Assembly (NCBI RefSeq): GCF_058153355.1 | Contig: NZ_JBLWLY010000002.1 | Direction: 5' to 3' (one strand) | DNA length: 64,000 nucleotides | Source: a plasmid | Part shown: piece by piece, positions 3,849 to 36,994 of the stretch | Layout of the letters: every line of letters starts with the position of its first letter | Numbering within the stretch: position 1 is the stretch's first letter | The notes under the pieces: model-generated | What the model saw: only the letters and a program-made list of their open reading frames with translations | What the model was told of the DNA's origin: nothing | The model's database searches: none | Translations under genes and position numbers: made by a program

Positions 3849-4259
3849 ATGAAAATGAATACTGCGCTGATAGTTGCACTAATGTGTATGTGGTATGCGG
3901 TACCCGCTGCTGCAAAAGAGACTTTACTGGCTATGCCACGTAATTCAACAGAACATTGCTATGCGGAGATTAATGTGCACGGACCATATGGGGTGTATTT
4001 CCGAGTGGTCCCGCATACCCCCGGGGGAAAGAGCTGGGTCGAATGTAACAGTGACTACTATTACTCTGATAAACCACCGGGAGTACAGATACTCGGAACC
4101 CGTGCAGGGTGTCGGGTATACGGAATCTGCGGGACCACCTCGACACTGCATGTGGCTGGAAGAGGGGTTGTGTGTATTAAAAATATATGCAGTCCACGTG
4201 GGATGATAATTCACAGGATACGGAAACGTCCTGTAGTGGCTGTAAGCGATGAGATGTGA
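3849..4259 (+). CDS. secreted cysteine-rich protein of unknown function
   Basis: ORF 3843..4259; ATG at 3849; N-terminal signal-peptide-like segment ending AAAKE; six Cys in the predicted mature part. Confidence 0.5.
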   Translation: MKMNTALIVALMCMWYAVPAAAKETLLAMPRNSTEHCYAEINVHGPYGVYFRVVPHTPGGKSWVECNSDYYYSDKPPGVQILGTRAGCRVYGICGTTSTLHVAGRGVVCIKNICSPRGMIIHRIRKRPVVAVSDEM

Positions 4260-4686: not shown

Positions 4687-6511
4687 AGTCGAGTCAGCCG
4701 GAGAGAATTTCACTCCCCGGCTGCTCACGGAACCGTACGTGACACTCTCGCGTCATACGGCTCTTGATCACTCATTTGATGCACGTAGTAAATACCAGTG
4801 AACAAATAGCTTCGGATACTCCTTCCTTACCAGCGTCAGCTTTCGCTGAGCCTTCCGGTTCGAAAGTCTGTATTTAGACTGCATCCACTTGAGCAGACGT
4901 GACTGCATTGCACTCCACAGTCGATAGTTGAAATTTCTGGACCAGAACTTTCCGTAGTACTCGATCCAGCCTCTCACTATCGCATTGTAGCGCCTCGCAA
5001 AATCCAGCAAACTCTCAGCTGTTGAGCGATGTATACGCCACTTCTTGATTGTTTCTGTTATTTTGCGCATTGCTGCATTTGACGCACCCGGCATGCATTT
5101 TCGGTACAGTTCGCCTTTGAAATTCTTCAGCGTACGCACTTTGAAGTCATATCCGAGAAAGGTGAAACTCGTTGCGACGTTTCTCCTTTTAAACGTGTCA
5201 ATGTAGGCGATATTCGTTTTCCCTGCATTCAGGACCAGCCCGACTTCCGAGAAGCGCTCCGATAACCTGTTCTTCAGCCTTGTTGCATCACTCATTCGTG
5301 AACAATGTACTACAATATCGTCAGCGTACCTCTCAAACGGTACCCCCCGATATTCTCTTTCCATCCACAAATCAAATGCATAGTGAAGGAACAAGTTAGC
5401 AAGTAGTGGACTAATGACCCCGCCCTGCGGAGTGCCTCGTGTTCGGGTTATTAATTCTCCATTTTCACAACTCTGCATTGGCGCTTCCATCCAGCGTCGA
5501 CAGTACAGGATGACCCATTTAGGCATCCCGTGGTGTTCCAGAGCTTTGAGCACCAGATCATGTCTCACATGGTCGAAAAACGCACTGATGTCCACTTCCA
5601 GTATCCAGCTATAACGCCAGCACCGGATGGCACATTGTTTCAGAGCGTCATGAGCTGATTTGCCTGGTCGGTAACCATATGAATCAGCATGGAAAATCGG
5701 GTCAAGCTTTTCTTCCATGAAAAGTTTTATCGCTCCCTGAGCAATTCGATCGGATACTGTTGGGATCCCCAGAATGCGTTCCTTGCCATTCGACTTCGGG
5801 ATCCGTTTTTCCAGCACTGGTGGCGGAAACCATGTTCCCGAACATAGCCGGTTCCAGATCTTGTATAGATTGCCATCACGTTGCTGGTCGAACATTTTCA
5901 AAGTCTGCCCGTCGCATCCGGGGGCTCCCTTGTTGCGACGCACATCCAGATATGATGCCCAGACCAGTGCTTTTGGTATTTCAAATGATTTTCGTTGCAT
6001 CAGTTACGTCATCCCCTTTTGGGTTGTGTCTTCTGCAATGAATGTGATCCCCATCCCTTCGCTCCAGACCCATTACAGATCTTTCATCACTACTACGAAT
6101 GGGTCCGCCCCTGTTTCCCGATACGTGCCGGAAACAGGTTCTCACGTTCCCTGAGATGGTCTGGCCCGGGATCCTGCTGCCTTCACACCGGATGCCGCGC
6201 AGTCAGTAAGCAGGTGTCTTCTGCGCTTATCAGGGGACGGCTGTACGGCCCCATTTTGACATCATCTAAGATTTCGATGCTTCATCGGACAGTTTACTTT
6301 CGTTCAGCTTCCCGAACCCCACGTGACAGTAGATCTCTGCCTTTTCCCGAGTCGCTCACCACCTCATTCCTTAGAATGAAGCAGCACCGGGTCGTTTGGT
6401 CAGTGCTCCTGTAAACCCTGACCGGAGGGCCCACCTCCACCCACCTCAGAGCATGGATAACTTATGCTGCAATTTTCACATTGTTGCCATAAGTACTCCT
6501 TCGTGACACAC
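4687..6511 (-). mobile_element. bacterial group II intron, copy 1
   Basis: 5' GTGTG and 3' ...AC termini; domain V-like hairpin gagccgtatgacgcg...cacgtacggttc after the IEP; interrupts tnpC between codons for GRKNWL and FAGSDSG. Confidence 0.8.
4768..6000 (-). CDS. group II intron-encoded reverse transcriptase/maturase (no endonuclease domain)
   Basis: 410 aa with RT motifs including YADD (RYADDIVV) and a maturase-like C-terminus. Confidence 0.85.
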   Translation of the reverse strand: MQRKSFEIPKALVWASYLDVRRNKGAPGCDGQTLKMFDQQRDGNLYKIWNRLCSGTWFPPPVLEKRIPKSNGKERILGIPTVSDRIAQGAIKLFMEEKLDPIFHADSYGYRPGKSAHDALKQCAIRCWRYSWILEVDISAFFDHVRHDLVLKALEHHGMPKWVILYCRRWMEAPMQSCENGELITRTRGTPQGGVISPLLANLFLHYAFDLWMEREYRGVPFERYADDIVVHCSRMSDATRLKNRLSERFSEVGLVLNAGKTNIAYIDTFKRRNVATSFTFLGYDFKVRTLKNFKGELYRKCMPGASNAAMRKITETIKKWRIHRSTAESLLDFARRYNAIVRGWIEYYGKFWSRNFNYRLWSAMQSRLLKWMQSKYRLSNRKAQRKLTLVRKEYPKLFVHWYLLRASNE

Positions 6512-7943
6512 AGAGCCAGTTTTTCCGGCCTACGGCCACTCCCCGTAAGGCGTTCTCTGCGATGTTGTTGTCGATTTCCACCCAGCCATTACTGCAGTAC
6601 ACGTTCAGTGCATCCCACTGTTTCAGCAGGTATGCGAACGCTTTTGCCGTGTCCGAGTGACGCGACAGTGTTTTCATCTGTTGCTGTATCCAGTCATACA
6701 GTGACTGCATCAGTGGCGCGGCTCTGGCTTTTCTTGCCGCCAGACGCTGTTCTGCTGAACAGCCCCGGACCTCTGCCTCGATGGCATACAGTTCACCGAT
6801 ACGCTGCAGGGCTTCCGTGGTGATGTCGGTGGGCACTCTTGCATGCACATCGTGGATTTTTCTCCGGGCATGAGCCATACATGCGGCTTCCGTTATTCTG
6901 CCGGATTCGTACAACGCCCGGTAACCACCGTAAGCATCGGCCTGAAGCACTCCGCTGTAACCGGCCAGATGATTCTGTGGATGGATACCTTTCCGGTCCG
7001 GGCTGTACGCGAACCAGACCGCCGGAGGCATTTCCGAACCGGCATTCCTGTCATCCCGGACATACGTCCAGATATATCCTGTTTTCGCCTTCTTCCTGCT
7101 CGGTGCCAGCACTTTTACTGGTGTGTCATCAGTGTGAACCTTGCGGGTGTTCATCACATAACGGTACAGGGCATCATTCAGCGGAGTCATTAACTGGCAG
7201 CACGCGTCAACCCAGTTGGAGAGTAACGTACGGCTCAGTTCGACCCCCTGACGGGCAAAGATTTCACTCTGACGATACAGTGGCAGGTGTTCGCAGTATT
7301 TTCCCGTTAACACGCGGGCAAGTAACCCCGGGCCCGCGATACCACGCTCTATCGGACGGGACGGTGCCGGAGCTTCAACGATGCAGTCACATTTTGTACA
7401 GGCTTTTTTTACCCGTTCTGTGCGGATCACTTTCAGAGCGCTGCTCACCAGTTCCAGTTGTTCTGCGCTGACTTCCCCCAGATAATCCAGCTCACCGCCA
7501 CACTCCGGGCAACAGCTTTCTTCTGGCTCCAGGCGATTTATTTCGCGGGGCAGATGCTCCGGTAACGGGCGACGATGACGAGACTGTCGTAACTGGCGGG
7601 GAACCCGGAACTCCACCTTGCAGGAGTTTGCACTGACAGTTGTCTGAGTAGATAGAGACGGAGTAAGAGCCGCCACCGGTTCTTTCTGCTCATCCGGCGT
7701 TATCTCCACAGGTAATAATTCAACGCCAGCGTCAGAAGGGGTTGTTACCGGAAGACGCCGTGATATACGCCCTTCGTTTTGCCAGAGTCTGAGCCATTTG
7801 AAAATAACATTATCATTAACGCCATTTTCTCGTGCAATCTGGGCCACACAAGCTCCGGGTTGTGATGCCAGTTCAACCATACGAAGTTTGAATTCATTCG
7901 AATGCTTTTTACGAGGTTCTTTTCGCCAGTCCTGTAATTCCAT
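6512..7943 (-). pseudogene. IS66 orfA-tnpC in-frame fusion, interrupted at 3' end by the intron
   Basis: N-terminus matches orfA of copy at 25452, then jumps at [19 protein letters not shown] into the middle of tnpC; tnpB absent; downstream tnpC exon at 4506..4686. Confidence 0.7.
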
Positions 7944-8701: not shown

Positions 8702-9721
8702 ATGAAATATACACCGGTTGGCGTTGATATCGCAAAACATCTGATTCAGGTTCACTTCATTGATGAGAACACAGGTGAAGTGGTGGATAAGCAACTTCGC
8801 GGCAGAGATTTTCTTGAATATTTCAGCAACCGGGAACCCTGCCTGATTGGTATGGAGGCCTGTGGAGGCTCTCAGCACTGGGCACGGGAGCTGACAAAGC
8901 TGGGGCATAAAGTCCGCTTGTTACAGGCCCGCTTCGTTAAGGCATTCGTCATGGGAAACAAGAACGACGTGATGGATGCCCGGGCTATCTGGATGGCGGT
9001 TCAGCAGCCCGGTAAAGAAATTGCCGTCAAAACAGAAGAACAGCAGTCGGTACTGGTTCTGCATCGTACCCGCATGCAACTGGTGAAGTTCCGGACCGCA
9101 CAAATTAACGCCCTACACGGGACGTTACTGGAGTTTGGTGAAACCATCCACAAAGGTCGGGCAGCGATGGAGCGGGAGTTCCCAGAAGCACTGGAACGAA
9201 TGAAAGAGAGACTGCCACCGTATCTCATCACGGTACTGGAAAACCAGTATAAGCGGTTGAATGAGCTGGACTCCCTGATAGAAGACATCGAAAAACAGCT
9301 TGCCAGCGTGGCGAAACAGAATGAGACCTGTAAGCGGTTGCTGGATATTTCTGGCGTTGGGCCACTTATTGCGACGGCAGCGGTGGCCACCATGGGGGAA
9401 GCATCAGCGTTTAAATCAGGGCGAGAGTTCGCGGCTTATGTTGGTCTGGTGCCCAAACAGACTGGCTCAGGAGGGAAAATCCGCCTGCTGGGGATAAGCA
9501 AACGTGGTGATACATATCTGCGAACCCTGTTTATTCATGGCGCAAGGGCGGCAGCATTACTGACCAAAGAACCTGGTCCGTGGATAACCGAACTGAAAAA
9601 ACGTCGTCCAGCCAGTGTGGCTATCGTCGCCATGGCAAACAAGCTGGCACGAACAGTATGGGCGATAGCTGCCCATGACCGTAAGTATGACAGGAACCAT
9701 GTCAGTATCAGACCATATTAA
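8702..9721 (+). CDS. IS110-family transposase
   Basis: 339 aa with N-terminal GVDIAKH and typical IS110 C-terminal region (VAMANKLARTVWAI). Confidence 0.8.
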   Translation: MKYTPVGVDIAKHLIQVHFIDENTGEVVDKQLRGRDFLEYFSNREPCLIGMEACGGSQHWARELTKLGHKVRLLQARFVKAFVMGNKNDVMDARAIWMAVQQPGKEIAVKTEEQQSVLVLHRTRMQLVKFRTAQINALHGTLLEFGETIHKGRAAMEREFPEALERMKERLPPYLITVLENQYKRLNELDSLIEDIEKQLASVAKQNETCKRLLDISGVGPLIATAAVATMGEASAFKSGREFAAYVGLVPKQTGSGGKIRLLGISKRGDTYLRTLFIHGARAAALLTKEPGPWITELKKRRPASVAIVAMANKLARTVWAIAAHDRKYDRNHVSIRPY

Positions 9722-10973: not shown

Positions 10974-11048
10974 ATGCCCGGAAAAGTTCAAGACTTCTTT
11001 CTGTGCTCACTCCTTCTGCGCATTGTAAGTGCAGGATGGTGTGACTAA
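10974..11048 (+). CDS. tap: Tap/RepA6 leader peptide
   Basis: 24-aa [27 protein letters not shown]; stop overlaps the GTG start of repA1. Confidence 0.75.
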
Positions 11049-11898
11049 TCTTCAACAAACTTATTACCGCCAGGTAAAGAACCCGAATCCGGTGTTCACA
11101 CCCCGTGAAGGTGCCCGGACGCTTCCGTTCTGCGGGAAACTGATGGAAAAGGCGGTGGGCTTCACCTCCCGTTTTGATTTCGCCATTCATGTGGCACATG
11201 CCCGTTCGCTTGGTCTGCGTCGGCGCATGCCACCGGTACTACGTCGCCGGGCCATTGATGCGCTGCTGCAGGGGCTGTGTTTCCACTATGACCCGCTGGC
11301 CAACCGCGTTCAGTGCTCCATCACCACGCTGGCCATTGAGTGCGGACTGGCGACGGAGTCTGATGCCGGAGTACTCTCCATCACCCGAGCCACCCGTGCC
11401 CTGACCTCCCTGGCTGAGCTGGGGCTGATTACCTACCAGACGGAATATGACCCGCTTATCGGGTGCTACATTCCGACCGATATCACGTTCACACCAGCAC
11501 TGTTTGCCGCTCTCGATGTGTCTGAGGTGGCGGTGGCTTCCGCACGCCGCAGTCGTGTGGAATGGGAAAACAGACAGCGCAAGAAGCAGGGACTGGATAC
11601 CCTGGGTATGGATGAACTGATGGCGAAAGCCTGGCGTTTTGTGCGTGAGCGTTTCCGCAGTTACCAGACAGAGCTTAAGTCCCGTGGAATGAAGCGTGCC
11701 CGTGCGCGTCGTGATGCGGACAGGCAGCGTCAGGATATTGTCACCCTGGTGAAACGGCAACTGACGCGTGAAATCTCGGAAGGGCGCTTCACTGCCAGTC
11801 GTGAGGTGGTAAAACGTGAAGTGGAGCGTCGTGTGAAGGAGCGCATGATTCTGTCACGTAACCGTAATTACAGCCGGCTGGCCACAGCCTCCCCCTGA
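11041..11898 (+). CDS. repA1: RepA1 replication initiator (RepFIIA)
   Basis: 285 codons from GTG at 11041; [19 protein letters not shown] and later sequence match IncFII RepA1. Confidence 0.9.
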
Positions 11899-12872: not shown

Positions 12873-13184
12873 ATGTTTAATGTGATTACTCACCCGGCCG
12901 CACTGGATGAACTTCTGGAATTACCAGACAATCTGCGTGGTCGTATGACCAGACTGATTGAACGGCTGGAACAGGAAGGTAACAAAATGAAAATGCCTCA
13001 CAGCCGTGTAATTGGCGGAGGGCTTTTTGAACTGAGAGTCGGGGATAAAAATATCGCAAGGACACTGTACGCTTATGCAACGGGTAACGAAATCTATCTG
13101 CTGCATGCATTTGTGAAAAAAACGCAAAAGACACCAACGAAAGCTATTGAAATTGCCAGGATGCGTCTGAAGGAGATGAACTGA
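12873..13184 (+). CDS. RelE/ParE-superfamily toxin, HigB-like
   Basis: 103 aa; toxin-first order with overlapping downstream HTH antitoxin. Confidence 0.65.
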   Translation: MFNVITHPAALDELLELPDNLRGRMTRLIERLEQEGNKMKMPHSRVIGGGLFELRVGDKNIARTLYAYATGNEIYLLHAFVKKTQKTPTKAIEIARMRLKEMN

Positions 13185-13471
13185 TGAAAGTAAAAGGTGT
13201 TCCATTCAGCCAGGTAAAGCAAAAACTACTCAGTACTCCAGAAGCTGTCAAAGGGTATGAGGATGCTGACAAAGAACTGGAGATGGTGGAAATGTTATAC
13301 GAAATGAGAGAAAAAGCGGGATTAACAAAGTCAGCACTGGCCGAACGAATGGGGTTACGCCCGTCAGCCATCAGTCGCCTGGAAAGTAACCCTTTAGGGG
13401 CCAGCATGAAAACTTTGACAAAATATGCTCATGCCTGTGGCGCAACCATCGATATTCACGCTGTCTATTGA
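13184..13471 (+). CDS. HTH (XRE-type) antitoxin, HigA-like
   Basis: 95 aa with helix-turn-helix segment LTKSALAERMGLRPSAISRLE; start overlaps toxin stop. Confidence 0.65.
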   Translation: MKVKGVPFSQVKQKLLSTPEAVKGYEDADKELEMVEMLYEMREKAGLTKSALAERMGLRPSAISRLESNPLGASMKTLTKYAHACGATIDIHAVY

Positions 13472-13756
13472 GGGGGCCGCTTGGAATTCGGAAAATAAAC
13501 CACGTTAAGACTATTTTTTAGACAAATGACTTTCAGGAATCGCCAAGATGGCGGGATAACAGCGGTTTTGGTGTCCGAAATCGTACAATTCTGTACATCC
13601 ACGAAAGGGAATGTACGGAAGTAAGCCAGACGGTTATCGGACGGTAAGAACATTTCGTACAGCCTTTACGTTCAGTGAGTTAGCTGGCCTGGACGTAACC
13701 ACTCGTTAACTCAATTCTCTTAGCGTGGGAAAATTTCCGAATTCCAAGCGGACCCC
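13472..13756. mobile_element. Tn3-derived inverted-repeat miniature element
   Basis: 38-bp terminal IRs gggggccgcttggaattcggaaaataaaccacgttaag (13472..13509) and its near-complement (13719..13756), matching the Tn3-family IR pattern; no transposase inside. Confidence 0.7.
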
Positions 13757-13801
13757 TTTATCCTTGCCCCGCTGAATGAGGAAACGCTGTTCCGGGGGAT
13801 T

Positions 13802-14029
13802 ATGCTGAACGTCTTCCGTTCACGGTACTGCTGGACGATGTGGCTGGGTGCGCTGATAACGTCGTTGTTGTTCGTCGCCGCGCACAGCCAGTATCAGAAC
13901 CTGCTGACCCTGGCAGAACTGTTCCTGGTGGGGGTGATTACATCAGCGGCCAGGATCAGAAGTGGTGGCCTGCTGCTGCCGGTATTGCTGCATATGGAAG
14001 CAACCGCGCTGGGTTTACTGTTTGGTTGA
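13802..14029 (+). pseudogene. CPBP/Abi-family intramembrane protease C-terminal fragment
   Basis: 75-aa ORF; family call from memory of the CPBP C-terminal region; a second copy of the same fragment is at 17049..17196. Confidence 0.4.
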
Positions 14030-14121
14030 CAGTTATATTTTTATTAAACATTGCGCGTTAAAGCCTGGTGTGTTTTTTTAGTGGATGTTATATTTAAATA
14101 TAACTTTTATGGAGGTGAAGA

Positions 14122-14379
14122 ATGCATACCACCCGACTGAAGAAGGTTGGCGGCTCAGTTATGCTGACCGTCCCACCGGCACTGCTGAACGCGCTGTCTC
14201 TGGGTACAGATAATGAAGTTGGCATGGTCATTGATAATGGCCGGCTGATTGTTGAGCCGCACAGACGCCAGCAATATTCACTGGCTGAGCTACTGGCACA
14301 GTGTGATCCGAATGCTGAAATATCAGCTGAAGAACGAGAATGGCTGGATGCACCGGCGACTGGTCAGGAGGAAATCTGA
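14122..14379 (+). CDS. pemI: PemI antitoxin, copy 1
   Basis: 85 aa MHTTRLKKVGGSVMLTVPPALL..., PemI/MazE-like. Confidence 0.85.
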   Translation: MHTTRLKKVGGSVMLTVPPALLNALSLGTDNEVGMVIDNGRLIVEPHRRQQYSLAELLAQCDPNAEISAEEREWLDAPATGQEEI

Positions 14380-14380
14380 C

Positions 14381-14713
14381 GTGGAAAGAGGGGAAATCTG
14401 GCTTGTCTCGCTTGATCCTACCGCAGGTCATGAGCAGCAGGGAACGCGGCCGGTGCTGATTGTCACACCGGCGGCCTTTAATCGCGTGACCCGTCTGCCT
14501 GTTGTTGTGCCCGTAACCAGCGGAGGCAATTTTGCCCGCACTGCCGGCTTTGCGGTGTCGTTGGATGGTGTTGGCATACGTACCACAGGTGTTGTGCGTT
14601 GCGATCAACCCCGGACAATTGATATGAAAGCCCGGGGCGGAAAACGACTCGAACGGGTTCCGGAGGCTATCATGAACGAAGTTCTGGGCCGCCTGTCCAC
14701 TATTCTGACTTGA
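14381..14713 (+). CDS. pemK: PemK toxin, copy 1 (GTG start)
   Basis: ERGEIWLVSLDPTAGHEQQGTRPVLIV..., PemK/MazF family; ORF 14249..14713 in track. Confidence 0.85.
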   Translation: MERGEIWLVSLDPTAGHEQQGTRPVLIVTPAAFNRVTRLPVVVPVTSGGNFARTAGFAVSLDGVGIRTTGVVRCDQPRTIDMKARGGKRLERVPEAIMNEVLGRLSTILT

Positions 14714-14978
14714 ACATGGGGGGGTGCCCCTATTAAGTTGTCAAGCATGTTATGACCCCTGCGGGGTATAAAAAGTCCCGTCGCGCATCATGGCGAACAG
14801 AACGTCGCAGCGTCGTCTCGCCAGGGCGATAAGCGCCTGATTGTGTCGTTTTCCCTGACTCATTTTGCGGGTGTAGTAAGCCCTGGAGAGCGGATCCCTG
14901 AGCGCGGCGAAGGCCGACTGTCAACGCCACGATTTTTAACCGTTATTTGCCATTTTCATGCCCGCTAAGATACTTTCG

Positions 14979-16948
<1,970 letters not shown>

Positions 16949-17048: not shown

Positions 17049-17196
17049 ACACAGCCAGTATCAGAACCTGCTGACACTGGCAGAACTGTTCCTGGTGGGG
17101 GTGATTACATCAGCGGCCAGGATCAGAAGTGGTGGCCTGCTGCTGCCGGTATTGCTGCATATGGAAGCAACCACGCTGGGTTTACTGTTTGGTTGA
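17049..17196 (+). pseudogene. CPBP-family protease C-terminal fragment, copy 2, cut by IS21 end
   Basis: same sequence as 13877..14029 beginning exactly at the IS21 terminus. Confidence 0.4.
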
Positions 17197-17288
17197 AAGT
17201 TATATTTTTATTAAACATTGAGCGTTAAAGCCTGGTGTGTTTTTTTAGTGGATGTTATATTTAAATATAACTTTTATGGAGGTGAAGA

Positions 17289-17546
17289 ATGCATACCACC
17301 CGACTGAAGAAGGTTGGTGGCTCTGTTATGCTGACCGTCCCACCGGCACTGCTGAATGCGCTGTCTCTGGGTACAGATAATGAAGTTGGCATAGTCATTG
17401 ATAATGGCCGGCTGATTGTTGAGCCGCACAGACGCCCGCAATATTCACTGGCTGAGCTACTGGCACAGTGTGATCCGAATGCTGAAATATCAGCTAAAGA
17501 ACGAGAATGGCTGGATGCACCGGCGACTGGTCAGGAGGAAATCTGA
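17289..17546 (+). CDS. pemI: PemI antitoxin, copy 2
   Basis: 85 aa; three substitutions relative to copy 1. Confidence 0.85.
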   Translation: MHTTRLKKVGGSVMLTVPPALLNALSLGTDNEVGIVIDNGRLIVEPHRRPQYSLAELLAQCDPNAEISAKEREWLDAPATGQEEI

Positions 17547-17547
17547 C

Positions 17548-17880
17548 ATGGAAAGAGGGGAAATCTGGCTTGTCTCGCTTGATCCTACCGCAGGTCATGA
17601 GCAGCAGGGAACGCGGCCGGTGCTGATTGTCACACCGGCGGCCTTTAATCGCGTGACCCGCCTGCCTGTTGTTGTGCCCGTAACCAGCGGAGGCAATTTT
17701 GCCCGCACTGCCGGCTTTGCGGTGTCGTTGGATGGTGTTGGCATACGTACCACAGGTGTTGTGCGTTGCGATCAACCCCGGACAATTGATATGAAAGCCC
17801 GGGGCGGAAAACGACTCGAACGGGTTCCAGAGACTATCATGAACGAAGTTCTTGGCCGTCTGTCCACTATTCTAACTTGA
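17548..17880 (+). CDS. pemK: PemK toxin, copy 2 (ATG start)
   Basis: MERGEIWLVSLDPTAG...; ORF 17416..17880 in track. Confidence 0.85.
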   Translation: MERGEIWLVSLDPTAGHEQQGTRPVLIVTPAAFNRVTRLPVVVPVTSGGNFARTAGFAVSLDGVGIRTTGVVRCDQPRTIDMKARGGKRLERVPETIMNEVLGRLSTILT

Positions 17881-18184
17881 ACATGGGGTTTGAGGGACAA
17901 CCGGACGAAAACGTTCGATTTAGGGCACTAAAACCGCTGCTGTTCCCTCATTCAGTGACTGCCCCAGGTTTTTTTCATGCTCTCCAAGATAGGTGTTTCT
18001 GGGCTCTGTTTGGGAAACGTAATCCTATCACACATTTACACCACTGAATTAGATTTCGATTGTGGAGTAATATCTTTAGTAAATAAATTTAGTCTTTCTT
18101 TTTCAGTTGAGAAAATATATCTCTTGGCTTGGGTTGCATTTTTCTTACTAATTAAGTCTGATATATGTTGTGGAGTATTTATTG

Positions 18185-18541: not shown

Positions 18542-18924
18542 CAGACGTATCGTGTACTAATCATATGGGGGGGCTGTTGGTTGTTTTCCTGCTTCGACAT
18601 AACAAATCTTTCTGGTTCATGTGGTTAAATAACTGTTCATCATACGCCGGAGGAGACTTAACAAAAAATTCCCCTATGTTGCCTCGTGACAGGACGTAGC
18701 TACCAGTGAATGCTGCGCATGGCGGTTTTGGTGTCCGATATCGTACAAAACTTACCCGTCAGCCTATTCATGTATTGCGCCTGTGGCACACACGAGAAAA
18801 CAGGTAGATTGTGTGTGGAGGAAACATGATTCCTTTCGTGTTATACCGCATGTTTTTTCTACTAACATTTTTTATGATAATCTGAATATTCGTAAAAATC
18901 CGATTTTTTAGTATGTATAAAAGA

Positions 18925-32490: not shown

Positions 32491-33033
32491 GTGAGTATTA
32501 AATATATTGTGTTTATCTCTGCTTTATTAATTTCCAATACGGGAAAGGGGGGCGAACAGCGAGTTGTTTTCAATGTGGATATTGTAGGTTCTGCCTGTCA
32601 TGTGGTGGTGGATGCGGACGGTTTCGGCAACAGTGGCCGACTGATATTCGGGACTTACCGTAAATCCACTGGCGCACCTGTATTGCCACGTGACTTCGTT
32701 GTGCGCTTGTATGAGTCCGGCGCTACGGTTCAAGGGTGTTCAGCCTTTCGAGCGGGGCAGGTCGCAACTCTGGATTTTGGTAACCCGGGCCAGCTGGACG
32801 CAAAGGGAGTGGTCACTCGCGGTGCTGGTGATGGTATTCGCGTGGATGTACGGGCGGTGGATACACAGGCGGATTATCGCGGACGTCTGACTCAGGACAG
32901 TCATTCGGTGAATTACCCGGTGGAGTTTGCTGTTAAGGGACAGTTCCGTTTTCGTGCACAGCCGGTGTTTCCGGTGAACGTGAAGGCAGGGGAATACACA
33001 GGGGCGCTGACCTTTGTGGTCACGTATCAGTAA
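32491..33033 (+). CDS. K88/F4-type minor fimbrial subunit (FaeC-like position)
   Basis: 180-aa ORF immediately upstream of the usher gene; AT-rich promoter region upstream. Confidence 0.55.
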
Positions 33034-33044
33034 CAGAGGAAAGT

Positions 33045-35480
33045 GTGTGTGCAGGAAAGAAGGGGGCAGAGCTGGTTTTGTTCTTGTTTTTTCGTCGGGC
33101 CGCGCTTGCTGTATCAGTCGCTTTCGCCAGTGCCACAGGTGTTGCAGGTGAAAAACTGGATATGTCCTTTATTCGGGGTGGTGCCGGGATTAATCCGGAA
33201 GTCTGGGCAGCGCTGAACGGCAGCTATGCACCGGGACGTTATTTGGTTGACCTGTCCCTGAACGGGAAGGAAGCCGGGAAACAGATACTGGATGTGACAC
33301 CACAGGACAGTGATGAACTGTGCCTGACAGAGGCATGGCTGACGAAGGCCGGGATTTACGTCAGTGCAGATTACTTTCGTGAGGGATATGACGCCACACG
33401 GCAGTGTTATGTGCTGACAAAAGCGCCGTCAGTGAAGGTGGATTTTGATGTTTCCACTCAGAGTCTGGCGCTGTCCCTTCCCCAGAAGGGGCTGGTGAAG
33501 ATGCCGGAGAACGTGGACTGGGATTACGGGACTGGTGCATTTCGCGTGAACTATAACGCGAACGCCAACACCGGCCGGAATAACACCTCGACCTTTGGCT
33601 CGGCAGATCTGAAGGTTAATATTGGGCACTGGGTGGTGAGTTCTTCTGCCTCAGCCAGCGGTGGTGACAGCGGGGATAACTCCGCCACGATAAACGCGTT
33701 CACGGCCACCCGGGCCATCCGCGCACTGAGTGCGGACCTGACGGTCGGGAAAACATCCACCGGGAGCAGTCTGCTGGGCAGTACGGGAACGTACGGAGTG
33801 TCGCTGAGCCGGAACAACAGCATGAAGCCGGGCAATCTGGGGTATACCCCGGTGTTCAGCGGCATTGCGAACGGGGCGTCGAGGGTGACACTGACACAGA
33901 ACGGGCGGTTGCTGCATTCGGAGATGGTGCCGGCAGGTCCGTTCTCCATCACGGATGTGCCGCTGTACACCAGTGGGGATGTGACCATGAAAATCACCGG
34001 CGAGGACGGTCGTGAGCAGACTCAGGTCTTCCCGTTGTCGGTGATGGCCGGGCAGTTAAGCCCGGGACAACACGAGTTCAGCGTGGCAGTCGGTTTGCCT
34101 GACGATGACAGTGACCTGAAAGGCGGCGTGTTTGCGGCGTCATACGGTTACGGTCTGGATGGACTGACGCTGCGCACCGGGGGCGTGTTTAACCGGGACT
34201 GGCAGGGTATTAGCGCCGGGGCTGTCCTGGGGCTGAGTTATCTGGGGGCAGTGTCTGCTGACGGGGCTTATGCCATGGCGAAATACCGTGACGGCAGCCG
34301 CAGCGGAAATAAGGTGCAGTTATCCTGGAGTAAACAACTGGAGATGACGAACACCGGACTGCGGGTGAGCTGGTCACGGCAGAGTGAGGAATATGAGGAC
34401 ATGTCCTCCTTTGACCCGACAGAGCTGTGGTCGCAGTCAAATCATGGTCGCCGGCCGAAGGATGAATGGAATGCCGGTATCAGTCAGTCGGTGGGGGGGC
34501 TGTTCAGTCTGTCGGTGTCCGGCTGGCAGCGGAGTTATTACCCGGCACAGATGACGGGCCGTTATCGGTACAGCGATGACAATGGTCTGGACACAGGGAT
34601 TACCGGTACCCTGAGCACACAGATTAAGGGCGTCAGTCTGAATCTGGGCTGGTCCGGCTCACGGAATTCGCAGGGAGAGAATAACAGGTCGGCGTCAGCC
34701 TCTATCTCGGTGCCATTCACGCTGTTTGAGCGTCGCTACAGCAGCAGTACGTCGGTGAGTACCAGCAAAGGCGGTGGCACGGGCTTCAGCACTGGCGTGT
34801 CCGGCTCGCTGAATGACCGTTTCAGCTATGGCTTGGGCGGCGGTCGTGATAGCGGTGGTGGTGTGAGTAGTTATCTAAACGCGTCGTACAGTGGTGACCG
34901 GGCTTATCTGAATGGTGCCCTGAACCACTCACAGTCCGGCGGAACCAGTGGTTCTGTATCAGTCAGCGGTTCGGTACTGGTCGTCCCGACGGCGAAAGAC
35001 ATTATGTTCAGCCGCACGACCGGGGACACCGTGGCCGTGGTGAACGTGAAGGATACACCGGGTGTGAAGGTGACGTTCGGTGACGGACAGACTGACAGCG
35101 ACGGCAACCTGGTGGTACCGCTGAACAGCTATGACTGGAACACGGTGACGATTGATGCGGGCACACTGCCGCTGAGCACCGAACTGACGAACACCAGTCA
35201 GAAGGTGGTGCCGACGGACAAGGCGGTGGTCTGGATGCCGTTTGATGCCCTGAAAGTCAAGCGTTACCTGCTGCAGGTGAAGCAGCGTGACGGTGAGTTT
35301 GTGCCAGGGGGAACCTGGGCACGTGACAGTAAGAACACACCGCTGGGCTTTGTAGCTAACAATGGTGTGCTGATGATTAACACGGTGGATGCGCCGGGTG
35401 ATATCACCCTAGGCCAGTGCCGGATACCTGCGGCCAGACTGCAGGATACTGAGAAACTACAGGAGATTACGTGTGAGTAA
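33045..35480 (+). CDS. fimbrial outer-membrane usher (FaeD-like)
   Basis: 811-aa ORF, usher-sized, between subunit and chaperone genes. Confidence 0.85.
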   Translation: MCAGKKGAELVLFLFFRRAALAVSVAFASATGVAGEKLDMSFIRGGAGINPEVWAALNGSYAPGRYLVDLSLNGKEAGKQILDVTPQDSDELCLTEAWLTKAGIYVSADYFREGYDATRQCYVLTKAPSVKVDFDVSTQSLALSLPQKGLVKMPENVDWDYGTGAFRVNYNANANTGRNNTSTFGSADLKVNIGHWVVSSSASASGGDSGDNSATINAFTATRAIRALSADLTVGKTSTGSSLLGSTGTYGVSLSRNNSMKPGNLGYTPVFSGIANGASRVTLTQNGRLLHSEMVPAGPFSITDVPLYTSGDVTMKITGEDGREQTQVFPLSVMAGQLSPGQHEFSVAVGLPDDDSDLKGGVFAASYGYGLDGLTLRTGGVFNRDWQGISAGAVLGLSYLGAVSADGAYAMAKYRDGSRSGNKVQLSWSKQLEMTNTGLRVSWSRQSEEYEDMSSFDPTELWSQSNHGRRPKDEWNAGISQSVGGLFSLSVSGWQRSYYPAQMTGRYRYSDDNGLDTGITGTLSTQIKGVSLNLGWSGSRNSQGENNRSASASISVPFTLFERRYSSSTSVSTSKGGGTGFSTGVSGSLNDRFSYGLGGGRDSGGGVSSYLNASYSGDRAYLNGALNHSQSGGTSGSVSVSGSVLVVPTAKDIMFSRTTGDTVAVVNVKDTPGVKVTFGDGQTDSDGNLVVPLNSYDWNTVTIDAGTLPLSTELTNTSQKVVPTDKAVVWMPFDALKVKRYLLQVKQRDGEFVPGGTWARDSKNTPLGFVANNGVLMINTVDAPGDITLGQCRIPAARLQDTEKLQEITCE

Positions 35481-36255
35481 GCGTAACGCAGTAACGACGT
35501 TTTTCACTAACCAGGTGACAAAAGCACTGGGAATGACGCTGGCGCTGATGATGAGCTGTCAGAGTGCGGTGGCTTCCCTGGCGGCAGACCAGACCCGCTA
35601 TATCTTTCGCGGGGACAAGGATGCGCTGACCATCACGGTCACCAACAATGACAAGGGACGTACCTTTGGTGGTCAGGCATGGGTGGACAATATCGTGGAG
35701 AAAGACACCCGTCCGACTTTTGTGGTGACGCCGTCCTTCTTCAAGGTGAAGCCGAATGGTCAGCAGACACTGCGTATCATCATGGCCTCGGACCATCTGC
35801 CGAAGGATAAAGAGTCGGTGTACTGGCTGAACCTGCAGGATATTCCGCCGGCTCTGGAGGGCAGCGGTATTGCAGTGGCGCTGCGTACGAAACTGAAACT
35901 GTTCTATCGCCCGAAGGCACTGCTTGAAGGTCGCAAGGGGGCAGAAGAAGGCATCAGTCTGCAGAGCCGCCCGGATGGCAGGACCATGCTGGTGAACACC
36001 ACGCCATACATTTTTGCGATTGGCAGCCTGCTGGACGGAAACGGAAAGAAAATTGCCGCGGATAACGAGACGGCGCAGAAACTGCTGATGTTCATGCCGG
36101 GTGATGAAGTACAGGTGAAGGGAAATGTGGTGAAAGTGGACTCCCTGAATGATTACGGTGAACTGCAGACATGGACGATTAACCAGAAGAAATCAGCAAT
36201 ATCGTCTGCACAGAAGTCATCTGATACAGAGGGTAATTCATCTGATAAAAAATAA
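35473..36255 (+). CDS. periplasmic fimbrial chaperone (FaeE-like)
   Basis: 260 aa with signal peptide; start overlaps usher stop. Confidence 0.8.
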   Translation: MSKRNAVTTFFTNQVTKALGMTLALMMSCQSAVASLAADQTRYIFRGDKDALTITVTNNDKGRTFGGQAWVDNIVEKDTRPTFVVTPSFFKVKPNGQQTLRIIMASDHLPKDKESVYWLNLQDIPPALEGSGIAVALRTKLKLFYRPKALLEGRKGAEEGISLQSRPDGRTMLVNTTPYIFAIGSLLDGNGKKIAADNETAQKLLMFMPGDEVQVKGNVVKVDSLNDYGELQTWTINQKKSAISSAQKSSDTEGNSSDKK

Positions 36256-36289
36256 TCGCCCTCCGGCATACGGAACAGAGGGGTAATAA

Positions 36290-36781
36290 ATGAAGAAAAC
36301 AATGATGGTAGTCGCCTTGGCCCTGAGTGCACTCAGTATTCAGTCAACACTTGCCGCTGAATACAGCGAGAAAGCGCAGTATCTGGGGGTGGTGAATGGC
36401 CAGGTGGTGGGTAACAGCGTGGTGAAGGTAACCCGCACACCGACAGATCCGGTGCTGTACCGGAGTGGAGACACGACGCCTCTTCCCGACCGCCTGACCA
36501 TCCGTAATGCAGAATCCAGAGCAGCATCTGGTGGCTTGGCGTATATCACGGTGAAACAGGTGCTGCCTGATAACGGGGAAGCCCGCATCACCCTGAAGAC
36601 GGCCCTGATGGTTGATGGAAAGAAAGTGGCAATCAGCGCCAGACAGCAGGGTGAGGATATGGTGATAACTTTGCCGGAAGCACAGAAGCAGATTGAATTA
36701 AGAACGGATGCACCGGCAGAGCTGGAAGTACCGGTCAGTTACCGGGGAAATCTGCAGATAGCGCTGCAGGTGGAGGACTGA
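36290..36781 (+). CDS. minor fimbrial subunit (FaeF-like)
   Basis: 163 aa with signal peptide MKKTMMVVALALSALSIQSTLA. Confidence 0.6.
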   Translation: MKKTMMVVALALSALSIQSTLAAEYSEKAQYLGVVNGQVVGNSVVKVTRTPTDPVLYRSGDTTPLPDRLTIRNAESRAASGGLAYITVKQVLPDNGEARITLKTALMVDGKKVAISARQQGEDMVITLPEAQKQIELRTDAPAELEVPVSYRGNLQIALQVED

Positions 36782-36994
36782 GGATTCATTTCCTTTATAA
36801 ATGCAGTACATCCCGTGATTCCGGAGCGGGTCATATTGGTAAAGGGATTTACCGTCTTTTAAAACGGGAATAACGTAAAACAATTCTGAGTTAAACACTG
36901 TGTTTAATGAAATGCGGTTATTTAAATGAATCCGCAGGGGATGGTTTTGCGGTAATTCCGGGGAAATAAGGATTACTGATTCAGTTTATTATTT

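Follow-up and report, generated by a model that had tools for sequence, protein, structure and literature searches.

We analyzed a 64,000-nucleotide stretch of a plasmid (NCBI RefSeq assembly GCF_058153355.1, contig NZ_JBLWLY010000002.1), called the window here, around a short segment that lies between a higBA-type toxin-antitoxin gene pair and the remains of a protease gene followed by pemI and pemK (Table 1). The TGA stop codon of the higA-like gene occupies positions 13469 to 13471, and the segment starts at the next base. The higBA genes lie downstream of an IncFII repA gene (11029 to 11898), and mobile elements crowd the region upstream of repA: a group II intron reverse transcriptase/maturase gene (4768 to 6000, minus strand), an IS66-family transposase gene (6462 to 7943, minus strand), and an IS110-family transposase gene (8702 to 9721, plus strand).

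Table 1. Features at and around the element, with positions counted along the window
Feature	Position	Strand	Remarks
higB-like toxin gene, Gp49/RelE type	12873-13184	+	Left flank, outside the element
higA-like HTH antitoxin gene	13184-13471	+	Left flank, outside the element
Probable complete non-autonomous Tn3-family element (TIME), 285 bp	13472..13756	.	Based on the repeats and on colinear 285- to 287-bp relatives; parts in order: IRL, 62-bp arm, res-like array, IRR
Left terminal inverted repeat, IRL	13472..13509	+	GGGGGCCGCTTGGAATTCGGAAAATAAACCACGTTAAG
Site X, 26-bp inverted half-site pair	13572..13597	.	TGTCCGAAATCGTACAATTCTGTACA; matches the res subsite nearest tnpA in autonomous relatives; candidate crossover site
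Site Y, 32-bp inverted half-site pair	13612..13643	.	TGTACGGAAG...TTATCGGACG; matches the middle res subsite
Half-site of the tnpR-proximal subsite Z	13653..13661	-	TGTACGAAA; no clear partner half-site
Right terminal inverted repeat, IRR	13719..13756	-	GGGGTCCGCTTGGAATTCGGAAATTTTCCCACGCTAAG, read inward
CPBP/Rce1-like protease gene, 3' part	13757..14029	+	Right flank; first ~380 bp gone
pemI and pemK	14122-14713		Downstream of the 3' CPBP part
Gamma-delta/IS101-type inverted repeat fused to a reverse-complement left-arm remnant	17885..17946	+	30/38 to the IS101 right repeat
Lone 27-bp copy of the last 10 bp of the left arm and the left 17 bp of site X	18722..18748	+	Not a terminal repeat

A repeat finder and direct reading of the sequence placed a pair of inverted-repeat arms at 13471 to 13515 and 13713 to 13757, which we trimmed to the 38 bp of the Tn3 family to obtain the left (IRL) and right (IRR) terminal repeats. 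Aligned over 38 bp each, the two are identical at 32 positions, in agreement with the original prediction that 38-bp inverted repeats bound a 285-bp segment here. The outer 23 nucleotides of the repeat occur exactly twice in the 64 kb and in none of 100 shuffled sequences. The only open reading frame in the 285 bp, which have a G+C content of 46%, is a 62-amino-acid frame running through IRL without a Pfam match; as had been predicted, the segment carries no transposase gene, and thus there is no TnpA between its repeats as there is in an autonomous Tn3-family transposon. The search for a cognate Tn3-family transposase that had been proposed as a check came back empty for the window, since tblastn with the cognate TnpA, the cognate TnpR, and a Tn1721-like TnpA found neither tnpA nor tnpR in the 64 kb. 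The longest open reading frame of the window, at 811 amino acids, is a fimbrial usher (33045 to 35480) within a chaperone-usher fimbrial cluster at 32491 to 36800, and we rejected the presence of a cognate transposase in the window on these grounds.

The position directly after a stop codon is what one might expect of a hairpin or terminator following higA, or the inverted repeat might have arisen by chance, in either case unrelated to transposons. We give this reading practically no weight: zero matches to the repeat are expected by chance, the termini agree with those of TnpA-encoding transposons, and the higBA module exists elsewhere without the segment, so that it is refuted. Moreover, no terminator, outward promoter, Rfam match, or other known RNA family was found within the 285 bp. 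The higA gene retains its native stop codon beside the segment, and the window copy appears to be inert, with no detected effect on neighboring genes.

The terminal repeats have the form described for TIMEs, being about 38 bp long with GGGG at the outer end and ACGNTAAG at the inner end, and the segment, at 285 bp and without a transposase gene, falls in the TIME size range of about 50 to 500 bp. Its terminus is identical at 29 of 38 positions to the Tn21 repeat. Alignment of the termini with known Tn3-family repeats, the other check that had been put forward, also gave a positive answer: IRL is identical to the left repeat of TIME244 at 29/38 positions, the left repeat of IMU matches at 30/38, the right repeat of MITESen1 matches IRR at 30/38, and the repeats of a transposon from Rahnella match those of the window at 33/38. 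The 5- or 6-bp direct repeat that typically surrounds a TIME is absent from the window copy, as the original prediction had noted; its 5-bp flanks are ATTGA and TTTAT. Since published TIMEs and composite TIMEs without direct repeats exist, the missing duplication weakens the case for a simple insertion but not the classification. Positions 13472 to 13756 are thus, in all likelihood, a transposase-less miniature relative of Tn3-type transposons, a TIME, that has kept its repeats and a res-like array, and the description of a Tn3-derived miniature element directly after the higA stop is upheld by its Tn3-family ends, the lack of tnpA and tnpR, and relatives in unrelated contexts.

The class itself is known (PMC4133298, PMC13367494). 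For comparison with its named members, we took the sequences of four TIMEs from Table S2 of PMC13367494. Whole-element global identity to IS101, IMU, MITESen1, and TIME244 is only 49 to 57% in either orientation; judged by these alignments, the element belongs to none of the four named enterobacterial TIMEs compared, and its family is apparently unnamed. It is without annotation in all records examined, a literature search with the repeat sequence yielded no paper, and keyword searches returned only general TIME papers. The published survey of enterobacterial TIMEs does not report this element, and its de novo step covered only resistance-gene plasmids of ≤20 kb (PMC13367494).

The closest functional analogue is IS101, the 209-bp TIME of pSC101, which likewise consists of two terminal repeats and an internal resolution site and which is mobilized by the transposase of a relative and resolved by its resolvase (PMC4133298; PMC13367494). 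IS101 differs from the element in length and in having repeats of the gamma-delta/Tn3 subgroup, identical to those of the element at just 18 to 20 of 38 positions, with a global identity of about 50%; furthermore, the activity of IS101 is experimentally established, while that of the window element is inferred. An enterobacterial plasmid TIME of 244 bp, TIME244 (Gomi and Yano 2026), is likewise one with Tn21-subgroup-type repeats, and its res site was predicted by comparison with autonomous transposons (PMC13367494). Its global identity to the element is about 55%, its res resembles that of Tn21/Tn1721, in contrast to the TGT[A/C]CG[A/G]AA half-sites of the element, and it is found as composites with resistance genes, whereas the window element is single and lies beside toxin-antitoxin genes. 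At 288 and 256 bp, respectively, IMU and MITESen1 are of similar size; they have Tn3-family repeats, and reside on Enterobacterales plasmids, but their interiors are unrelated to that of the element (55 to 57% global identity), and no res-like similarity has been reported for them (PMC13367494). The founding TIMEs, TIME1 to TIME4 of Pseudomonas, share the 38-bp repeats and have 5- to 6-bp duplications; contrasted by description only, they are 262 bp long with 53 to 54% G+C.

The autonomous transposons that come closest to the element (for example L015, L014, and L078, and the Rahnella locus L011) have near-identical terminal repeats, and their half-sites agree with those of the element in motif and spacing. 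The DNA upstream of their tnpA genes corresponds colinearly to the element's right two-thirds. Unlike the element, they encode TnpA and mostly also TnpR, and their identity to the interior of the window copy is about 70 to 75%. In L014 and L015 (the latter on CP063712.1), tnpR and tnpA lie on either side of the res region; TnpA matches PF01526 (E, 6e-150) and NF033527 (1211 bits), and TnpR is a homologue of gamma-delta/Tn3-type serine resolvases (E, 1e-24). The only database name for the transposase is "Tn3 family transposase." In these relatives tnpA ends in the inner part (AATTATCCCACGCTAAG) of the matching repeat, and this inner part differs by one base from that of the window IRR. The Rahnella transposon is plasmid borne and has tnpA only, with the tnpA stop codon inside the left repeat, and that repeat is split by an IS1111-type IS. 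When we used its TnpA as a tblastn query, about 280 PLSDB records matched at ≥90% identity, and the ones we looked at are plasmids of enterobacteria on which tnpR and tnpA diverge; TnpA of the L015 type is found on at least 1000 contigs. A scan for the outer repeat in one genome per species gave 103 loci, nearly all in Enterobacterales and many with this tnpR/tnpA pair. Among these relatives, the 62-bp left arm of the element adjoins tnpA only in a hybrid from Rahnella woolbedingensis (L106), and we found no autonomous transposon with the exact interior of the E. coli-type copies.

Several other features of these relatives were seen. IS4321/IS1111-family insertion sequences sit at an identical position inside the terminal repeat (L011, about 1531 to 2886; L014, 7001 to 8326; L015, from 7001), and insertion of this family into terminal repeats is known for repeats of the Tn21 subgroup. 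Pectobacterium versatile carries a 2935-bp element with the same terminal repeats and an ATTTA duplication (L042, 335 to 3269), whose cargo is two open reading frames of 504 and 301 amino acids with none of transposase size, making it a non-autonomous transposon. In Photorhabdus cinerea (L016 to L027), the repeat lies about 105 to 127 bp from many contig ends, which suggests that a related transposon multiplied in a burst and that its copies interrupted the assembly. In Erwinia persicina, the outer end of the terminal repeat abuts the start codon of the cognate tnpR (L030, 9224 to 9248), as if an element had inserted into the res region or recombined there.

The interior of the element contains five half-sites of the motif TGT[A/C]CG[A/G]AA with spacings of 18, 23, 23, and 17 bp. 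The same spacings occur in the tnpR-tnpA intergenic regions of eight autonomous relatives (L015, L078, L102, L014, L028, L024, L050, and L074), where the half-sites stand at -151/-148, -135, -117, -94, -71, and -54 relative to the tnpA start, and five half-sites with identical spacings are also present in the divergent relatives of the element and upstream of the Rahnella tnpA. When we measured column conservation across six divergent 285- to 287-bp copies, the half-sites scored 0.92, about the same as the terminal repeats (0.93), compared to 0.77 for the rest of the interior; the half-site value was reached in 0 of 10,000 permutations. The array of inverted half-sites is thus colinear with the tnpR-tnpA intergenic region, and half of subsite Z is recognizable as well. 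On this basis we infer that the array is a res site for a serine resolvase and that it could be active, with the reservation that the site may be inactive, since only a half of Z is recognizable. At the center of site X, the E. coli-type copies have TTGTACGA where the autonomous relatives have CCGACCGG, a difference that likewise counts against this reading.

One part of the original prediction did not survive. Segments at about 13563, inside the element, and at about 18722 had been taken for partial copies of the terminal repeat, but they are copies of each other, with 26 of 27 positions identical between 13562 to 13588 and 18722 to 18748. The local alignment score of the internal segment against the terminal repeats was 10 and not significant, compared with 7.0 ± 1.3 in shuffled sequences, 5.7% of which reached it, and the inner 20 nucleotides of IRL have no second match in the window at ≤3 mismatches, which also argues against partial repeats. 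The 18722 copy ends inside site X, and homology to the element also breaks inside X in two other, unrelated structures: the R. woolbedingensis hybrid, in which the repeat, left arm, and half of X are joined to the other half of X and tnpA, and a remnant of about 150 bp after pemK in standard IncFII plasmids (L002). Breaks at this place match what a crossover at X would be expected to leave behind, though they are not proof of it.

Elements of 285 to 287 bp that are colinear with the window copy occur across Enterobacterales; those 70 to 76% identical to it were seen in Enterobacter, in Xenorhabdus, in contigs labelled Citrobacter and Chryseobacterium, and in a metagenome bin. The Enterobacter copy (L006) lies in a Tn1721-like tnpA gene and is flanked by a GACTT duplication; removing the element and one duplicate restores a 988-amino-acid TnpA reading frame, and another plasmid of the same strain carries the cognate TnpA. 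A Xenorhabdus copy (L062) is flanked by a TAAAT duplication, so these two copies document insertion at independent sites with 5-bp repeats. Larger elements with the same repeats, containing cargo or a degraded tnpA (L042 and L113), also have duplications, and at least six further contexts lack direct repeats.

These copies also bear on the idea that the window element is the remnant of a full-length transposon that decayed in place and was never mobile as a miniature. The lack of a target duplication at the window copy fits such an origin, as does the match of its left 48 bp and right ~105 bp to both ends of the autonomous relatives. Against it, the same colinear 285- to 287-bp architecture recurs in unrelated contexts and genera, in two cases with clean 5-bp duplications, and independent decay would not keep yielding identical deletion end points. 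The colinear copies at different sites largely refute decay in place, which we regard as highly improbable.

Copies of the E. coli type are 90 to 99% identical to the window copy and differ among themselves by about 6 to 10%. None of the approximately 10 that we examined has a target duplication, so that recent mobility of this subtype is at most conjectural. They adjoin higBA, pemK, ccdAB, and the genes for colicins E2/E3, M/B, and V, and an isolated repeat of the IRR type lies beside phd-doc. On an 8.1-kb colicin plasmid (L122, 1255 to 2004), a full copy sits between the colicin E2 and E3 operons, where the colicin E3 gene loses its N-terminal part, and in L123 a copy directly adjoins base 31 of a CPBP gene in inverted orientation; in both, a breakpoint again falls at an element end.

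The flanks of the window copy have separate histories. A plasmid in the comparison (L120) carries higBA at the same place downstream of repA without the element, and its homology to the window extends as far as the base preceding IRL and is lost from there on. On the other side, the intact CPBP gene of pCROD1 begins to align with the window at the outer base of IRR, a point some 380 bp inside the gene, and this protease gene is uninterrupted in pCROD1 and in thousands of IncFII plasmids. Because both homologies stop exactly at the outer ends of the element, the two junctions are transposase-precise while differing in origin, and they join DNA of two alternative IncFII backbones. The repA-pemIK region has its best long matches in enterotoxigenic E. 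coli (ETEC) plasmids, and the higBA-element junction matches Shigella and enteroinvasive E. coli (EIEC) invasion plasmids. Neither the 5' fragment of the CPBP gene nor the sequence that elsewhere follows higA was found in the window, and no single plasmid or E. coli record covers ≥80% of the 8.5- to 20-kb region around the element.

In plasmids that lack the element, higA is followed by the last ~180 bp of an IS91-family element (L120, 2433 to 2640; L121, 3116 to 3297; L003, 5352 to 5538). IncK plasmids have the same IS91-family end at a distance of 25 bp from the element, and in an EIEC plasmid IS91 lies 66 bp beyond it. We also searched PLSDB with synthetic junctions for an ancestral simple insertion. 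No record covered the CPBP-5'|IRL junction at ≥80%, and the only hit to an IRR|after-higA junction, at 82% in pEC_Bactec, is due to the shared IS91-type end 25 bp from the element and is not the reciprocal junction.

The suggestion that the element had been rearranged after insertion fits these findings, in that each flank belongs to a different plasmid backbone with homology ending at the element, and the missing duplication is best explained if the two junctions come from different molecules or events. The element keeps only parts that would act in cis, two 38-bp ends for TnpA binding and between them an array of serine-resolvase half-sites, and it could therefore be moved only by TnpA from a related autonomous transposon sharing its cell; the L015-type enzyme is a candidate. 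TnpA provided in trans would drive replicative transposition through a cointegrate, which the TnpR of the relative would then resolve at the internal res. Three routes to the present structure can be envisaged. In the first, the element would have passed by replicative transposition from a higBA-bearing IncFII plasmid into the protease gene of one bearing CPBP-pemIK, and higA|IRL...IRR|'CPBP would be one junction of the resulting, unresolved cointegrate; lacking resolvase, such a cointegrate could persist and decay later. Alternatively, the structure could be the product of an adjacent deletion, or of an exchange between two copies of the element. Whichever of these routes was taken, the window encodes neither TnpA nor TnpR, so the copy is an immobile, dormant relic.

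The right flank also raises the possibility that the element is one half of a former composite (TIME-COMP) that carried 'CPBP-pemIK and whose second copy, after pemK, was destroyed by IS activity. pCROD1 has a full, 93%-identical copy right after pemK, in the orientation that the window copy has before 'CPBP-pemIK, and in the window the first pemK is followed by a 9-bp stub of the usual downstream sequence and then by unrelated IS DNA. There is also a precedent in the formation of composites by circle integration at a resident copy proposed for MITESen1 (PMC13367494). However, the window contains one copy where a composite has two, no record was seen with the element on both sides of 'CPBP-pemIK, and no duplications mark the movement of a composite element, so we consider this origin unlikely. 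An 839-bp segment containing the 3' end of the CPBP gene, pemI, and pemK is present twice in the window (13883 to 14721 and 17050 to 17888, 98% identity), and the two copies flank an IS21-like element with istA/istB open reading frames (14979 to 16948). A target duplication of the IS21-like element is excluded as the source of this repeat by its length, which is far too great.

A single TIME with junctions of different origin remains our preferred reading of the locus. Another proposal is that plasmids have co-opted the element as a site for resolving multimers or cointegrates, or as a hotspot for module swapping, so that it is retained by selection and is not selfish DNA. Conservation is as strong in the half-sites as in the terminal repeats, copies recur at the boundaries of higBA, pemIK, ccdAB, phd-doc, and colicin modules, two loci (L005 and L123) share a common right flank but differ in their left flanks, and homology breaks inside site X in three structures, all of which would fit such a role. 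Against it, a selfish element in need of resolution predicts the same conservation of its half-sites, the association with accessory modules may reflect where plasmids tolerate insertions, and no resolvase is encoded in the window. We find co-option rather improbable.

In PLSDB, 4864 records have some match to the element and 740 contain ≥80% of it. A match of some kind is present in 1491 of 5426 complete E. coli genomes and a near-full copy in 528, and 1620 of the 1844 matched places are on plasmids. Being of a family that E. coli plasmids commonly carry, the element is of an ordinary kind, though poorly catalogued; TIMEs escape gene-based annotation. The four named TIMEs were found in 3.5% of Enterobacteriaceae genomes (PMC13367494), and the family described here is apparently more frequent than these four together, a comparison that is no more than indicative because the datasets differ. 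A broader and tentative view, which we hold as a conjecture with less than even odds, is that the 285-bp TIMEs form an unnamed family that spans the order and carries a working res, that the window copy belongs to its E. coli branch, and that members of the family could be mobilized and could serve as portable recombination sites for plasmid stability modules (higBA, pemIK, ccdAB, and phd-doc) and bacteriocin modules. Portable recombination sites would explain why copies without duplications stand at module boundaries in roughly one in ten complete E. coli genomes. Should the internal res be functional, the element would be the second well-supported miniature element, after IS101, to combine transposition ends with a resolution site. 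The family marks breakpoints in plasmid backbones, and recognizing it should help in reconstructing how mosaic virulence and IncF plasmids were assembled. For the window itself little changes, and the copy there is a dormant relic.

Parts of the element are also found joined to repeats of other types. In the window, an IS101-type 38-bp repeat (17885 to 17922) sits 5 bp past the second pemK, fused to a remnant of the left arm. In standard IncFII plasmids (L002, about 4001 to 4140), an IS101-type repeat is joined to the element's first ~115 bp in reverse complement, giving a mini-element of about 150 bp that is bounded by two different types of repeat. In an evenly spaced sample of the 4864 plasmid hits, about one in four is this hybrid, and in one plasmid (L119, 6180 to 6280) a third Tn3-family end is inserted into it.
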